Assembly: GCF_050920415.1 (NCBI RefSeq)
Contig: NZ_CP169309.1
Direction: 5' to 3' (one strand)
Length of the DNA: 64,000 bases
Source of the DNA: Escherichia coli
Lineage (GTDB): Bacteria; Pseudomonadota; Gammaproteobacteria; Enterobacterales; Enterobacteriaceae
In this document: piece after piece, positions 29,721 to 59,344 of the stretch
How the letters are laid out: each line of letters begins with the position of its first letter
Numbering within the stretch: the stretch's first letter is position 1
Notes under the pieces: model-generated
Database searches by the model: none
Told to the model about the DNA's origin: nothing
Seen by the model: only the letters and a program-made list of their open reading frames with translations
Translations under genes and position numbers: made by a program

Positions 29721-30302
29721 TTATGCAGCGAGATTTTTTGCTACGAATTCCCAGTTCACCAGCGCCCAGAAGTGCTCCAGATAGCCAGGACGTGCATTGC
29801 GATAGTCGATGTAATAAGCGTGTTCCCAGACATCAACGGTCAGCAGTGGAGTCGCATCGGTGGTCAGCGGAGTACCCGCGTTAGAGGTTGAAACGATAGC
29901 CAGTTTGCCATCGCTGTTTTTCACCAGCCAGGTCCAGCCAGAACCAAAGTTTTTGATTGCTGCATCAGTAAACTGTGCTTTGAAATCGGCAAAGCTGCCA
30001 AAAGATGCGGCGATAGCTTCAGCGACTTTTCCAGTCGGTTCGCCACCCGCGTTCGGTGCCAGGCAGTTCCAGTAGAAAGTATGGTTCCAGACCTGAGCTG
30101 CGTTGTTGAATACGCCACCTTCAGAGCTGCGAATAATCTCTTCCAGTGATTTACCTTCAAACGCGGTACCTTTAATCAGGTTGTTCAGGTTAGTGACATA
30201 AGTCTGATGATGCTTGCCGTAGTGATACTCGATGGTTTCCGCAGAAATGTGCGGTGCCAGAGCATCTTTAGCATATGGTAGTGCAGGTAATTCGAATGAC
30301 AT
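29721..30302 (-). CDS. sodB: Fe superoxide dismutase
   Basis: 193 aa; recognised SodB sequence. Confidence 0.97.
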
Positions 30303-30429: not shown

Positions 30430-31257
30430 TTAGCGAAGTGTTTTTGGGGTCATTACCCGGCGAGCGCCAACATAGTGGCGCTGCCAGTAGTCTTCACTGA
30501 GAGAAGTGATTTGAATTTCCTGACCCGTACGCGGTGACTGAATAAATTTGCCGTTGCCGACATACACGCCGACATGATCGGCTGTACCGCGTCCCTGAGT
30601 ACGGAAGAAGACCAGGTCGCCGTTTTTCAGTTCACTACGTTCGATAGGTGCTGCATCACGCAGGTGATACATTTCATTCGCCGTACGCGGAATACGAATT
30701 TTTACCAAATCTTTATAAGCGTAATAAACCAGACCGCTGCAATCAAAACCGGTACGCGGTGAGCTGCCACCCCAACGATATGGCTTACCAATTTGCTGCA
30801 TCAGTTTATTCATTGCCACTTTTGTGGCTTTTTGCACCTTCGCTTTGTGTGCGTCGGCAAGGGTTCCTGACGCGGCATTTTTGACTTTCACACAATGCGA
30901 TTTATAGCCCTTACGTTTGGTACACTTTTCGGTAAAGCTGGCTGAGGCCGTTTTATTGACGACGTGTTTGCTGCGAGTTTTGGCGTTTTTAGAAGCGGTA
31001 ATGGAAGATTTTTTAACGGAGGAAGCGGTTTTGCTTTTGGTCGTACTTTTACTGGCGGCTTTTTTCGCTGTTTTCTGGCTGGCTTTCTGGGTCTTTTTGG
31101 TGGTTGCCGTGCTTTTCTTTTTATCTGCTTTTTTGGTGATATGAGTGGTAGCAGAACTCTCCCTGGCTTGCTTTGAAGCATGGGCCATAGGCATTAAAGG
31201 CAGGGTGGTAAAAAGTAAAGCACAGAGCGTGATCGAAATACGGTTTATCCGCGCCAC
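30430..31257 (-). CDS. mepH: NlpC/P60 peptidoglycan DD-endopeptidase MepH (YdhO)
   Basis: 275-aa ORF; signal peptide, Lys/Thr/Ser-rich linker, catalytic DCSGLV motif. Confidence 0.9.
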   Translation of the reverse strand: MARINRISITLCALLFTTLPLMPMAHASKQARESSATTHITKKADKKKSTATTKKTQKASQKTAKKAASKSTTKSKTASSVKKSSITASKNAKTRSKHVVNKTASASFTEKCTKRKGYKSHCVKVKNAASGTLADAHKAKVQKATKVAMNKLMQQIGKPYRWGGSSPRTGFDCSGLVYYAYKDLVKIRIPRTANEMYHLRDAAPIERSELKNGDLVFFRTQGRGTADHVGVYVGNGKFIQSPRTGQEIQITSLSEDYWQRHYVGARRVMTPKTLR

Positions 31258-31591
31258 TGAGCGTCCCTCTGTTAAGGCAGGTCTATCATGCCTGCGTCTG
31301 ATTTACAAAACTTGATAATTCTAATGCATAGAAGAAGAGAAAGTTAATAGCTTTTATTGTTAAAAAATACGTTTCGTCGGCGAGCGCAAAAAAATGCAGC
31401 AGTGGAAGCTAAAAATGGTTATAAATACGCCAGTTTGCCGTGCATAAGGGAAGAAACGAATATTTGAAATGCAACAAATAGAACAAAGGGATAAAATAGC
31501 AAAAGCGTGATGAAAATGTTATTTTCCGATGCCGCACTGACCCGCTACAATGTCAGATTACTGCCGTAAAGAAGTTTGAGGAAGCAAGACA

Positions 31592-31939
31592 ATGAGCACC
31601 ACTATCGAAAAAATCCAACGCCAGATTGCTGAAAACCCGATCCTGCTGTACATGAAAGGTTCACCGAAACTGCCGAGCTGCGGTTTCTCTGCCCAGGCAG
31701 TCCAGGCGCTTGCCGCATGTGGCGAACGTTTTGCCTATGTTGATATCCTGCAGAATCCGGACATTCGTGCGGAACTGCCGAAATATGCTAACTGGCCGAC
31801 CTTCCCGCAACTGTGGGTTGACGGCGAGCTGGTCGGCGGTTGTGATATCGTGATCGAAATGTATCAGCGTGGCGAACTGCAGCAGCTGATCAAAGAAACT
31901 GCCGCTAAATACAAGTCTGAAGAGCCGGACGCTGAATAA
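31592..31939 (+). CDS. grxD: monothiol glutaredoxin Grx4
   Basis: 115 aa; CGFS active-site motif. Confidence 0.95.
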   Translation: MSTTIEKIQRQIAENPILLYMKGSPKLPSCGFSAQAVQALAACGERFAYVDILQNPDIRAELPKYANWPTFPQLWVDGELVGGCDIVIEMYQRGELQQLIKETAAKYKSEEPDAE

Positions 31940-31989: not shown

Positions 31990-34900
31990 CTATCCCCAAT
32001 CCAGTCCTTGTGGCGAACTTGAAAATCCCGCCTCACGCAGCAGCGTAAACATCGGCGTTTGCCGGACCGGTAGGTCATTCACTTCTGTTAGCGTAAAGCG
32101 CAGCCGTGGTTCGCGACGCAGTGCGGTAGTCAGCGCGTGGAAAATCTCTGGGGCGAGTAATTCCTCTTTTTCCTGCCAGACCAGCATTTTTTTGCCACCT
32201 TGCGCCAGATAGAGTAACAATTTGCCGCCAGAAACGACCACCAGCGCACCCGCCCGACGCGTTGGTATCAGCGTTGCCGGATGTGCAGGCCAGGGCAGAA
32301 GATTTCCCCATGCATTAGCCGGATCGTTGGCAGAGAGCGCCACTGGTGTATAGTGGCGCGTTTGCGTGGCTTGTGTCGCCAGATCGCGCAATCGGTCAAT
32401 AGTCAGACGTTCAGCGAATTGCGCGCCACCCAGACTTTCTACAAAACGACCTCGCATAATTCGCCCGGAGTCTTCCATACTTCGACAAAGCGTTTGCATC
32501 GATGGAAACCCGCCAGGGATATTTTCGGCTATCACCGCCTGACGACTGATGATGCCGTAGCGGTCGAGCATATTTTCCGCCAGCGCCAGCATCCTTTCGG
32601 TATCGTTTAGTGGCTCCACCTGCAATAACGACCAGCGTCCAGCCAGATTTGGTGTGTTGTAAGATAGCAGCGGCGAGACGGGTTGCGCATAGACAGGACG
32701 TCCACGACGAGCCCGGTGGCTGCGACGAGTTGAGGTGCGTGTGTTGGTACTGCTGCGGGTGAGGGCGCGTAACGGTGCCCAAATGTCGCTGGTGATGACG
32801 CCTTGCCAGACCAGCGCCCATAACGCCTCTTGCAGGGCTGAGGGAGCAACCGATTCGTCGATTTTATCGCGTATCCGTTGGCTGATTTGTTGTGCAAACC
32901 AGGCTCCTCCGTCAGCCAGAACCGTGACTATCGCTTGCTGCAGCGCCGAACGATTCGCCTGATTCGCTTCGGCGGGAGTGAACGATTCTGCGGCATATTC
33001 CTGTAGATGCAGTGCCACCAGACCGTCATCTTCACCCAGTTTTTTTTGCCCCGACCAGATAACCGCACCGGTTGCCAGTAATTCATCGAGCATTTCTGGC
33101 GAATAGTCGCGTACGCGGGCAGGCAGGATCTGGCTTTCCCAGAGTGAGGCGGGTAAACCGACTCCGGCAAGCTGTTCGATCACCCGCACGACGCCATCCA
33201 CACCCTCATAAACGCCTGGCGATGTTGAGGCAAAGAGTGCCGGGCTACCATCGGTGGCGGGTAATACGCCCTGACGTTCCAGCAGCAATCGCGCATAGGT
33301 CGTGGCCGCAACGGGACGTGTCGCTTCTCTGGCGGCTTGCAGCGAGCGCAAACGCAGACGACGAAATACTTCATCGCTCACCCAGATGCCTTGTTGCAGA
33401 TTCATCACCAGCCCCTGTTCGCGCAGTTGCTGAAGTTGCTCTTCGACAATGGCAATACCGAGACTAAACTCATGAGCCAGTTGTTCAGACGTGACCAGAG
33501 CATGAGCCCGGAGATAGCGCAGAAAGAGGTCGCGAAGCGGGTAACTGACTCGGTGCAAATAAATCTCTGGCAGTGACTCTGGTAGTCGTACGCCGAGGGC
33601 ATCGCGCAGCCTGGCGGCATCATCCATACAGGCAAGACGCTCCTGCCCGCTAATCATCGTCGGGAAGATTCGTTTTACTGCAAGAAGATTTTCCAGATAC
33701 GACGCAATCTTTTCACTGCTGCCTGTATGCCGTTGCGCCAGGTCTTCAACGGTCATTGGCCCCAGTTCGCGCAGCAGGTCGAACAATCCTTCTTCACCTT
33801 TCGCTCTTCTACCAGAAGCCAGTCGTTGCAACTCTTCTTCCACCTGGCGAATGACCTGCGGGTCGAGTAATTCCCCCGGATCGACCTGTCCGAGTAGATT
33901 GCGCAGTAACTCGCTGTCCAGCGACAGTACGGATGCCCGGCGCTCTGCCAGCGGGGCGTCGCTCTGGTACATAAATTCCGCGACATAGCCGAACAATAAA
34001 CTGGCGGCGAAAGGCGAAGGCGTAGGGGTCGTTACATCGGATATTTGAATTTCGCCACCGTTCAGGCGACGCATCAAACGTTCCAGCGCGGGAAGATCAT
34101 AAACATCTTGCAGACATTCGCGTAGGGTTTCGAGAATGACCGGAAAATCCGGATATCCCTGAGCGATTTCCAGCAACTGACTGGCGCGTAGCCGTTGTTG
34201 CCAAAGCGGGGTGCGATGGCCCGGCGTGCGGCCCGGCATTAATAATGCCCGCGCGGCGCATTCGCGAAAACGGGCGGCGAAAAGTGCCGAGCTGCCTACC
34301 GCCTCGCGGACAATTTGCAGCAACTTTTCTGGTTCAAACAAAAAAATCGCGGCATCGGGCAATTTACCATCGGTGTCAGGAATGCGCGCAACAATGCCGT
34401 CATCACTGGCAACCACAGACGCGTCAGCGCCCCATAGTGCATGTATTCGCCCGGCAATCGCCAGCGCCCAGGGTTCATGCACCCGTCTTCCATAGGGAGA
34501 GTGCAAAATAATACGCCAGTCGCCAATTTCATCACGGCACCGTTCGAGGACCAGATGACGACTACCCGGAACGATGCCCGTCGCGTTGCGCTGCTCGTCA
34601 ATCAACCCCTGAATATTGGCGATCGTATTTTCTTCTGCCAACCACGGGGGAATAGTCCCGGAAAAGAACGCGCCATCCGCCAGTAAATGGAGAAAATCGC
34701 CGATCATCTCGCCTAATTCTGCCGGACGTCCGTTACCTTCACCACGCCAGAAGGGAAGGCGGGCAGAACGACCTGGAGCAGGAGTCACAATCACCTGATC
34801 GCGGGTGATTTGCTGGATCCGCCATGAGGTAGCGCCGAGAGTGATAATGTCGTTCACCCGCGACTCATATACCATCTCCTCATCCAGTTCACCCACCCGC

Positions 34901-36606
34901 CGCGAACCGGCCTGTTCTTCACCTTCGGGTAATAACACGCTATACATGCCACGATCCGGAATGGTGCCACCGCTGGTAACCGCCAACAGCTGAGCGCCAG
35001 GTCGGGCGGTCAATATCCCGGTCTCCCTGTTCCAGACCAGTTTTGGTCGAAAAGCAGAAAAATCGCCAGAGGGATAGCGCCCGGAAAGCATATCCAGCGT
35101 GGCGTCAAAAACACGTCTTGGCAGATCTTTCCACGGTGCGGCACGGCGTACGCGGGAGTACCATTCGTCTGCCTGTAATGCATCCATCGCCGCGGTGGCA
35201 ACGGTCTGCTGCGCAAGGACGTCGAGTGGATTATGCGGTGGTGTCAGGTTTTCCAGCCTGCCTGCGAACATACACTCAACAATGACTGCGGAATCGACTA
35301 AGTCACGCCTGGTTCGGGGGAAAAAAAGCCCTTTGGAGATACCACCTACCTGGTGTCCGGCACGTCCAATGCGTTGTAACCCACTGGCAACAGAAAGCGG
35401 CGTTGCCACCTGAATTACCAGATCCACCGCGCCCATATCAATCCCCAGTTCGAGACTGGAGGTTGCGACCACGCAGCGTAATTCACCCGATTTCAGCGCC
35501 TGTTCGGTGATGGCTCGTTGTTCTTTAGACACGGAGCCGTGGTGTGAGCGGGCAATAAAAATGTCGCTACTTTGTACACGGTTAGAGGTTGCGCCGGAGG
35601 TCGACTCGAAATGGGCCGCATCAACGGCGATAGACGGGGAACGCTGTAAGCGTGCGGCGTAAAGCTCATTCAATCGTGCCGTCAGTTTTTCCGCCAGCCC
35701 GCGTGAATTAGTAAAGACAATGGTCGAGCGATGGCGCAAAACTTCATCAAGGATACCCGTTTCAATATATGGCCAGATGGAGCCTTCTCGGCCGGCATGG
35801 CTGTCTTCGCCGGTGCCGCTGGCGACCGATGAGACATCATCCATATTGGCGACCGGTACGACAATCCGTATCTGCGGATGGCGCATTGCGGGCGGGTTGA
35901 CTACCGTAACCGGGCGATCGCCACCAAGAAATGCTGCCACATCGCTGGCTGAGCGTACAGTGGCAGAAAGGCCAATTCGCTGTGCTGAGGTGTGGAGCAG
36001 CGCATCGAGCCGCTCCAGACTTAACGCCAGATGCGCACCACGTTTACTGCCCGCTACCGCGTGGACTTCATCAATAATTACCGTTTCGACGCCGCGTAGC
36101 GTTTCGCGCGCGCGGGAGGTCAGCATCAGATAGAGTGATTCGGGTGTGGTGATCAGAATATCCGGCGGATTACGGGTGAGTTTGCTGCGTTCCTGTGCAG
36201 GCGTATCGCCAGTACGGATCCCCACGCGAAGATTGACTTCCGTTTCGCCGCGCCGCCGCCGTTCATCGGCAATACCCTGTAACGGGATCTGCAAGTTGCG
36301 CTGAACGTCGGTGCCCAGAGCTTTGATCGGTGAAATATAGAGAATGCGTGAGGTTTTACGCTTATGCGCCTCGCGGGTATCTTCGCCGCCTTCGCGGAAG
36401 AGCTGATCGAGGGCGTAGAGAAATGCTGCCAGCGTTTTCCCGGAGCCAGTCGGTGCAATCACCAGCGCATGTTCGCCTCGCGCCGCCACATGCCAGGTTT
36501 GCGACTGGACAGCGGTCGGCTGTTTAAAGGCGCGAAGAAACCAGTCGCGGGTCGCCGGTGAAAACACGTCCGGCAGGGGCGATGAAGGGTTTAGATTATC
36601 TGCCAT
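31990..36606 (-). CDS. lhr: ATP-dependent helicase Lhr (large helicase-related protein)
   Basis: 1538 aa; superfamily-2 helicase motifs (GSGKT, DEVH). Confidence 0.95.
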   Translation of the reverse strand: MADNLNPSSPLPDVFSPATRDWFLRAFKQPTAVQSQTWHVAARGEHALVIAPTGSGKTLAAFLYALDQLFREGGEDTREAHKRKTSRILYISPIKALGTDVQRNLQIPLQGIADERRRRGETEVNLRVGIRTGDTPAQERSKLTRNPPDILITTPESLYLMLTSRARETLRGVETVIIDEVHAVAGSKRGAHLALSLERLDALLHTSAQRIGLSATVRSASDVAAFLGGDRPVTVVNPPAMRHPQIRIVVPVANMDDVSSVASGTGEDSHAGREGSIWPYIETGILDEVLRHRSTIVFTNSRGLAEKLTARLNELYAARLQRSPSIAVDAAHFESTSGATSNRVQSSDIFIARSHHGSVSKEQRAITEQALKSGELRCVVATSSLELGIDMGAVDLVIQVATPLSVASGLQRIGRAGHQVGGISKGLFFPRTRRDLVDSAVIVECMFAGRLENLTPPHNPLDVLAQQTVATAAMDALQADEWYSRVRRAAPWKDLPRRVFDATLDMLSGRYPSGDFSAFRPKLVWNRETGILTARPGAQLLAVTSGGTIPDRGMYSVLLPEGEEQAGSRRVGELDEEMVYESRVNDIITLGATSWRIQQITRDQVIVTPAPGRSARLPFWRGEGNGRPAELGEMIGDFLHLLADGAFFSGTIPPWLAEENTIANIQGLIDEQRNATGIVPGSRHLVLERCRDEIGDWRIILHSPYGRRVHEPWALAIAGRIHALWGADASVVASDDGIVARIPDTDGKLPDAAIFLFEPEKLLQIVREAVGSSALFAARFRECAARALLMPGRTPGHRTPLWQQRLRASQLLEIAQGYPDFPVILETLRECLQDVYDLPALERLMRRLNGGEIQISDVTTPTPSPFAASLLFGYVAEFMYQSDAPLAERRASVLSLDSELLRNLLGQVDPGELLDPQVIRQVEEELQRLASGRRAKGEEGLFDLLRELGPMTVEDLAQRHTGSSEKIASYLENLLAVKRIFPTMISGQERLACMDDAARLRDALGVRLPESLPEIYLHRVSYPLRDLFLRYLRAHALVTSEQLAHEFSLGIAIVEEQLQQLREQGLVMNLQQGIWVSDEVFRRLRLRSLQAAREATRPVAATTYARLLLERQGVLPATDGSPALFASTSPGVYEGVDGVVRVIEQLAGVGLPASLWESQILPARVRDYSPEMLDELLATGAVIWSGQKKLGEDDGLVALHLQEYAAESFTPAEANQANRSALQQAIVTVLADGGAWFAQQISQRIRDKIDESVAPSALQEALWALVWQGVITSDIWAPLRALTRSSTNTRTSTRRSHRARRGRPVYAQPVSPLLSYNTPNLAGRWSLLQVEPLNDTERMLALAENMLDRYGIISRQAVIAENIPGGFPSMQTLCRSMEDSGRIMRGRFVESLGGAQFAERLTIDRLRDLATQATQTRHYTPVALSANDPANAWGNLLPWPAHPATLIPTRRAGALVVVSGGKLLLYLAQGGKKMLVWQEKEELLAPEIFHALTTALRREPRLRFTLTEVNDLPVRQTPMFTLLREAGFSSSPQGLDWG

Positions 36607-56551: not shown

Positions 56552-59344
<2,793 letters not shown>

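Follow-up and report, generated by a model that had tools for sequence, protein, structure and literature searches.

A basic, probably disordered N-terminal linker of Escherichia coli MepH occurs in two common lengths

Introduction

Listeria p60 (Iap) and the Bacillus enzymes LytE, LytF and CwlO are NlpC/P60 wall hydrolases that carry Thr/Ser/Asn-rich low-complexity sequence N-terminal to the catalytic domain, and the Thr-Asn repeat of Listeria iap differs in copy number between strains. Long, flexible low-complexity segments that tolerate changes in length also occur in the periplasm, in LpoB, TonB and TolA. The linker of the E. coli endopeptidase MepH, which concerns us here, is similar in these respects; LpoB, TonB and TolA are, unlike MepH, membrane-anchored and bridge a distance. 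Since mature MepH is predicted to be soluble, its linker has no obvious span to bridge. An Iap model aligns over MepH aa 33-268 and LytE (8i2e) over aa 57-267. However, linkers of the Iap/LytE type join LysM or SH3 wall-binding modules, whereas MepH is without a binding module, and the iap linker is a true short tandem repeat, of which the MepH linker has none.

A closer relative is MepS (Spr), which like MepH has a disordered segment ahead of an NlpC/P60 domain; the catalytic domains are homologous, with PDB entries 2k1g, 7v6s and 8xud matching MepH aa 149-270. Both enzymes are controlled by NlpI-Prc (PMC8996183, PMC11211486). MepH belongs to a set of three endopeptidases that are redundantly essential, and Prc degrades it with NlpI as adaptor (PMC8996183); DD-endopeptidase activity on 4-3 cross-links is attributed to it in work cited in PMC11211486. 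The lipoprotein MepS has a disordered segment of about 37 residues, which folds on NlpI (PMC11211486). In contrast, the MepH signal, as read from sequence, is of the signal peptidase I type and has no lipobox, and the MepH segment is unlike that of MepS in comprising about 80 residues, in being polycationic and in being followed by a two-cysteine hairpin. Our literature searches found no paper or experiment on the MepH linker itself.

Here, we analyse the linker-encoding part of mepH in a 64,000-nt stretch of E. coli DNA (NCBI RefSeq assembly GCF_050920415.1, contig NZ_CP169309.1), referred to throughout as the window, and compare it with complete genomes, draft assemblies and orthologues from other genera.

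Results

Identity and setting of the mepH gene

The 275-aa ORF contains NLPC_P60 (PF00877) as its sole Pfam domain (aa 157-267, E=8e-37) and matches, at 100% identity, a RefSeq gene named 'peptidoglycan DD-endopeptidase MepH'. The NCBIfam MepS equivalog scores the window protein at 85.8, far under the cut-off of 186, and the protein is therefore assigned as the MepH paralogue and not as MepS. The gene order grxD-mepH-sodB, with sodB at 29721-30302 (minus strand) and grxD at 31592-31939 (plus strand) followed by lhr, agrees with that of annotated loci. A whole-gene mepH match was obtained in 5,425 of the 5,426 complete E. coli genomes searched. Identity of at least 99% over mepH is seen in only 47 of these 5,425, strain MFDS1022581 being the best match, and the window thus comes from a less common lineage. 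The window protein has M22 in the signal peptide (codon 31192-31194) and V99 (codon 30961-30963), where most strains have T22 and either A or T at position 99. The coordinates of all features are collected in Table 1.

A 50-aa 'hypothetical protein' (WP_001299740.1) has been annotated between grxD and mepH in a single strain, 98193 (L018, 849-1001, minus strand); the locus corresponds to the intergenic 31258-31591 of the window.

Table 1. Features of the mepH locus, in window coordinates.
Feature	Position	Strand	Remarks
mepH (ydhO) CDS	30430..31257	-	275 aa, GTG start, long-linker allele; from ORF, Pfam, RefSeq match and synteny
Signal peptide, aa 1-27	31177..31257	-	presumed signal peptidase I type, judged from the sequence: MARINR, hydrophobic core, A-H-A before S
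Polycationic low-complexity region, aa 28-107	30937..31176	-	predicted disordered; contains the flagged span 30957-31161
12-nt segment CCAGAAAGCCAG	31079..31090	-	gene nt 168-179; residues QKAS/KASQ 57-60; present here, missing in 65% of genomes
CCAGAAA 7-nt direct repeat	copy 1 31084-31090; copy 2 31072-31078	-	copy 1 lies inside the 12-nt segment; short allele retains one copy
Direct-repeat pair ACCGCTTC(T/C), 30 nt apart	30991..31029	-	gene nt 229-237 and 259-267; bounds the rare 30-nt deletion (261-aa MepH)
A6 run (GTT AAA AAA TCT)	31009..31014	-	gene nt 244-249; site of the A6-to-A7 frameshift
Out-of-frame 97-aa ORF	30888-31181	-	+1 frame of the mepH strand; codon-composition by-product
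Antisense ORFs	30917-31144 and 30964-31176	+	same codon-composition cause
Conserved beta-hairpin, aa 108-126	30880..30936	-	invariant C112 and C122 (alignment columns); predicted strands 108-113 and 121-126
NlpC/P60 catalytic domain, aa 157-267	30457..30789	-	C173, H228 and Q240 invariant in 29 orthologues; no indels in any orthologue

Composition and predicted disorder of the linker

The flagged span covers codons 33-100, that is 68 residues (ESSATTHITKKADKKKSTATTKKTQKASQKTAKKAASKSTTKSKTASSVKKSSITASKNAKTRSKHVV), with 28% K, 19% S, 19% T and 15% A. Together K/T/S/A account for 81% of the span, as compared with 23% of the catalytic domain. The net charge is +18 (20 basic versus 2 acidic residues), hydrophobic residues are almost absent, and the Shannon entropy is 2.84 bits versus 4.06 for the catalytic domain. 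We derived a background from the 64-kb window, using every stop-free stretch of 150 aa or more: over 3,696 windows of 68 aa, the K/T/S/A fraction has a mean of 0.26 (sd 0.077), and every 68-aa window reaching 0.60 or above falls inside mepH. The composition of the linker is real and far beyond chance.

An AlphaFold2 model built from an alignment of 29 orthologues (mean pLDDT 59) gives pLDDT values of 27-31 over aa 21-100 and stays under 50 throughout aa 17-108, where DSSP assigns no secondary structure, and aa 28-107 are probably disordered. Among the PDB matches, no solved structure extends N-terminal of aa 127 other than LytE chain 8i2e_B, for which the alignment starts at aa 57. The flanking regions are better defined. 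The signal peptide is ungapped and conserved in the 29 orthologues, and cleavage would fall at the A-H-A/S site. Downstream lies the hairpin motif TEKCTxRKGxKxxCVKVK, in which C112 and C122 probably form a disulfide, followed by a predicted helix (aa 133-154) between the hairpin and the NlpC/P60 fold. The first-pass annotation had described about 65 K/T/S/A residues between the signal peptide and the NlpC/P60 domain; the length and composition agree with our figures, but the stretch does not directly abut the domain.

The same annotation had called the linker reiterated. This is apt for its codon usage, which is biased (AAA 17 times, ACC 8 times), but no periodic or tandem repeat accompanies it: TRF reports none at a score of 30 or above in the linker, and a direct-repeat search found one weak 15-nt pair. 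A repeat array (VNTR/SSR) was considered and dropped, as neither search shows tandem structure and each of the deletions described below has different end points. We prefer to describe the region as low-complexity DNA with microhomologies, since no tandem structure was found.

Two length alleles in E. coli

The first-pass annotation had suggested that the linker could vary in length between strains and proposed an alignment of mepH across E. coli. Length is indeed not uniform. A megablast search of 5,426 complete E. coli genomes, with the 205-nt linker as query, separates a 205-nt from a 193-nt class; in addition, rare in-frame deletions and differences in length between species were found, as set out below. 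The long form, as in the window, is present in about 1,877 genomes (35%) of 5,424, and the short form in 3,546 (65%), including K-12 and O157:H7. Here, the long class is defined by at least 95% identity (179+1,699 = 1,878 genomes, one of which is the truncated gene of ST2747) and the short class by 90-95%; the subject length was 205 nt or 193 nt, respectively, in every row sampled. In a whole-gene search, 59 evenly spaced rows comprised 21 of 828 nt and 38 of 816 nt. Except for two gene truncations, no linker length beyond the two common ones was found among the complete genomes.

When the window is aligned at the DNA level with Nissle 1917, a K-12 derivative and O157:H7, the 12-nt indel falls inside the flagged span. 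In the long allele, CCAGAAAGCCAG is followed by CCAGAAAACAG, and the short allele corresponds to the loss of one CCAGAAA copy together with the 5 nt between the copies. A loss of this form is classically left by slippage between short direct repeats, which would account for the 12-nt deletion. The MepH of E. albertii (P0002) has 275 aa and keeps the four residues ('NKASQK'), and the Citrobacter and Salmonella orthologues mostly have residues at the four indel columns. As E. albertii and other genera keep these residues, the long allele is ancestral and the 271-aa K-12/O157 form is derived.

Two complete genomes carry larger losses at the locus. E. coli ST2747 (L007, NZ_CP007394.1 2189-2501; window about 31057-31280) has a 225-nt deletion from -23 to +201 of mepH and so lacks the start codon and signal peptide as well as half of the linker; the gene is annotated as a pseudogene, and no junction microhomology was seen. 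In E. coli TUM2805 (L004, NZ_CP128950.1 3003-3116), almost all of mepH is deleted together with the grxD-mepH intergenic region, and the last 114 nt of the gene directly adjoin grxD. The TUM2805 genome is only 4.09 Mb.

Origins of the 12-nt deletion

A haplotype table of 18 strains places the short allele on three SNP backgrounds, which are K-12-like, O157-like and S88/KE41-like. Each of these resembles some long allele (CFSAN027343, PapRG-04-4 and Nissle). CFSAN027343 (long) and K-12 (short) are identical downstream and differ upstream of the gene, and this pair is therefore also compatible with a recombination breakpoint. When a synthetic 'long S88' sequence was used as query, no exact progenitor was retrieved from the collection; the best matches reached 99.2%, still 2 SNPs off, and no long allele in the collection has all three S88 SNPs. 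Recurrent deletion and conversion tracts of less than about 300 nt explain the three backgrounds equally well.

It is conceivable, but very improbable in our judgement, that the four-residue indel is non-neutral, having recurred at CCAGAAA and being held at 35:65 through an effect of linker length or charge on NlpI-Prc turnover or sacculus retention. If this were true, the disordered tail would be a regulatory element of cell-wall expansion.

The haplotype comparison also touches a neighbouring gene. The 4.6-kb lhr helicase gene is intact in the window (31990-36606). In S88, 82.0311, FDAARGOS_536, O170:H18 and KE41 (L005, L008, L011, L012 and L016; positions about 140-370), small annotated remnants of lhr lie between rnt and grxD. 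This large lhr deletion is linked to the mepH locus and co-occurs with both mepH length alleles; the lhr deletion of FDAARGOS_536 and O170:H18 is likewise present in the strains with S88/KE41-like short alleles.

Rare in-frame deletions

A protein search revealed further forms of E. coli MepH, with lengths of 210 and 239-262 aa and, in nearly all cases, full query coverage. The corresponding in-frame deletions range from 27 to 183 nt (27, 30, 66, 78, 81, 96, 102 and 183 nt). Eight of nine touch aa 57-125 (P0010, P0011, P0014, P0015, P0018, P0019, P0020 and P0052) and one is located at aa 124-145. The natural E. coli variant P0052 is missing up to 61 residues, and the deletion in P0020 removes the first cysteine of the hairpin. 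These rare variants come mostly from draft or metagenome assemblies; one of them, P0010, was checked in DNA. Its 30-nt deletion falls between 9-nt copies of ACCGCTTCT and is found in the DNA of both an NCBI assembly and an independent Logan run (L023 and L024).

Each deletion was placed on reference DNA, and the boundary microhomology is 9 nt for P0010. For the other forms it would be 5 nt (P0019, P0052, P0016 and probably P0011), 4 nt (P0020), 3 nt (P0015), 2 nt (P0014) or 1 nt (P0018). The deletions resemble slipped-strand deletions known from E. coli in that one repeat copy is lost together with the intervening sequence (7 nt for the 12-nt deletion, 9 nt for the 30-nt deletion). They differ in that some of the rare mepH deletions have just 1-3 nt of microhomology, and are otherwise nothing unusual.

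Three proteins from ENA metagenome contigs (P0017, P0060 and P0063) combine a normal MepH N-terminus and linker with a divergent NlpC/P60 C-terminal half. They may be chimeric assemblies, or else the products of recombination with a different C40 gene.

Frameshifts and alternative reading frames

An A7 allele at the A6 run, which disrupts the normal mepH frame, is present in four loci (L019-L022; Logan ERR13763722, ERR13669413, ERR13763582 and ERR15567864) at locus position about 1355-1361, and in at least 39 sample blocks. It occurs in 0 of 5,423 complete genomes and is therefore confined to one set of draft/Logan samples. With A7, gene callers take the ATG in the open +1 frame as the start codon, which gives rise to the 246-aa 'putative exported hydrolase' P0037.

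Several other frame-disrupted forms were set aside. P0013 is of full length with about 50 linker residues in the +1 frame, reached via compensating -1/+1 changes in two A-runs and still basic (GCA_900448615.1; L025, UGAW01000002.1 801-1628). It is probably a sequencing error, as grxD is likewise broken up in that assembly. The same probably holds for P0007 and P0068, which change frame several times.

That the length differences in general are sequencing or assembly artefacts of an A-rich, low-complexity stretch seems to us highly unlikely. P0013, with the broken grxD alongside, and P0007 and P0068, with several frame switches each, are what such artefacts would look like. However, the 12-nt indel cleanly splits 5,424 finished genomes and is linked to SNP haplotypes, the 30-nt deletion is identical in the NCBI assembly and the independent Logan run, and the A7 frameshift is seen again across its sample blocks.

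The three overlapping out-of-frame ORFs that the first-pass annotation had ascribed to the reiterated codons all exist, and the ascription is borne out by shuffling of codon order. In the shuffled linker, at least three alternative frames with at most one stop each were obtained in 81% of trials, compared with 8% for the codons of the catalytic domain, and two alternative frames were stop-free in every trial. Overall, alternative-frame stops in the linker are not depleted (11 observed versus about 13, with 13.5 in mononucleotide shuffles). They are limited to two frames owing to strong biases at the codon positions, with 62% A at position 1, 81% A or C at position 2 and 7-22% T at each position. 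None of the three out-of-frame ORFs is a gene; they result from codon composition.

We attach next to no credence to the view that the region is a contingency (phase-variable) locus, or that it holds overlapping genes in its open alternative frames. The 240 nt of disordered-region DNA do contain six A5-A6 runs, the longest being A6, there is a lineage with the A6-to-A7 frameshift, and three alternative frames are open for 70-97 codons. Against this, A7 is absent from the complete genomes, TRF identifies no repeat tract, and the frames remain open under codon-order shuffling (P=0.81). An overlapping ORF could moreover not be conserved, since the underlying sequence is not conserved between genera.

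Clustering of length changes in the linker

Comparison of 96 homologues (at least 62% identity) shows linkers of 44-95 aa in 25 different lengths, whereas the segment from GKPY to the C-terminus has 119 aa in 95 of the 96. In other Enterobacteriaceae, changes in length are limited to the linker region. The linker is present in every orthologue, and its composition is kept while sequence and length drift, both in the 29-orthologue alignment and among the 96 homologues. In the latter, the K/R/T/S/A fraction is 0.79 +/- 0.05 and the net charge has a mean of about +19 with a range from +9 to +26. Within E. coli, variable sites of the disordered region fall into amino-acid-changing codons in 8 cases and into synonymous-only codons in 5; for the catalytic domain the corresponding numbers are 2 and 19. 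Constraint on the sequence of the disordered region is thus relaxed.

At the DNA level, short direct repeats are 4-5 times as frequent in the disordered region as in the catalytic domain; for 6-mer direct-repeat pairs, the densities are 19.2 and 3.4 per 100 nt. Since an allele is seen only if it is in frame and viable, and deletions in the catalytic domain would be lost to selection, the clustering of length changes in the linker reflects tolerance together with mutability. Replication slippage or microhomology-mediated deletion at short repeats would generate the linker deletions. These may then persist, with selection acting on bulk properties (flexibility and a charge of about +19) and not on exact sequence or length. 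We consider it likely that the flagged span is the core of a basic, probably disordered N-terminus of about 80 residues in mature MepH, a periplasmic enzyme, and that its length varies by microhomology deletion within a tolerant segment.

Discussion

What the linker does can be approached from the properties that are retained. Charge and flexibility are kept and sequence is not, and hydrophobic residues are few; on these grounds we rank a flexible polycationic tail ahead of an NlpI-Prc docking site, and the latter ahead of a spacer. The first of these, a tail that would keep soluble MepH on the polyanionic sacculus or envelope, is put forward tentatively, as a role that the composition of the segment suggests.

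A docking site or degron for NlpI-Prc, conceived by analogy with MepS and with the length and sequence of the disordered region tuning MepH stability, appears unlikely, although several observations favour it. MepH levels and half-life are increased in prc and nlpI mutants (PMC8996183), and the N-terminal disordered region of MepS binds NlpI and folds on binding (PMC11211486). The first 20 or so residues of mature MepH are also better conserved than the remainder of the linker, with S28 invariant and A31, K42, K47 and K48 nearly so. However, the MepS contacts are sequence-specific and partly hydrophobic (PMC11211486), whereas the MepH linker is nearly devoid of hydrophobic residues and drifts between genera. 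The dependence of MepH on Prc and NlpI is known from genetics (PMC8996183), and our literature searches found no MepH-NlpI binding data. The status of MepH as a Prc/NlpI substrate (PMC8996183) is equally compatible with docking, with a degron and with a binding tail.

Alternatively, the linker could be a passive spacer, its composition merely tolerated in the periplasm and its indels neutral. The wide range of linker lengths among homologues is without evident consequence, P0052 is a natural variant despite its large deletion, and both 12-nt alleles are common. We nevertheless regard a mere spacer as quite unlikely, as net charge and K/R/T/S/A content are kept across genera despite sequence turnover, and the region is missing from no orthologue. 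The conservation of charge and composition in the face of turnover argues for selection on bulk properties. The conserved polycationic linker, together with the known control by Prc and NlpI, makes the proposed role of the polycationic tail worth testing.

The length variation itself is ordinary for a tolerant disordered segment, and public databases already contain mepH and both of its alleles, listed under one name. MepH being an already characterised enzyme, the importance of the present results is small beyond bookkeeping. Two points of bookkeeping follow. Because K-12 MepH (271 aa) is the derived deletion allele, its residue numbering is offset by 4 from that of roughly one E. coli strain in three. 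Moreover, composition or sequencing artefacts account for the alternative-frame ORFs and for some of the 'variant proteins' found in databases.

Elsewhere in the window, a 740-aa ORF with a ferredoxin-type cysteine motif (56552-58774, minus strand), which we take to be RsxC/RnfC-like, contains about five tandem units of ~28 aa near its C-terminus (about 56600-57200). The repeat is truly tandem and makes this ORF a better candidate than mepH for variation in copy number.
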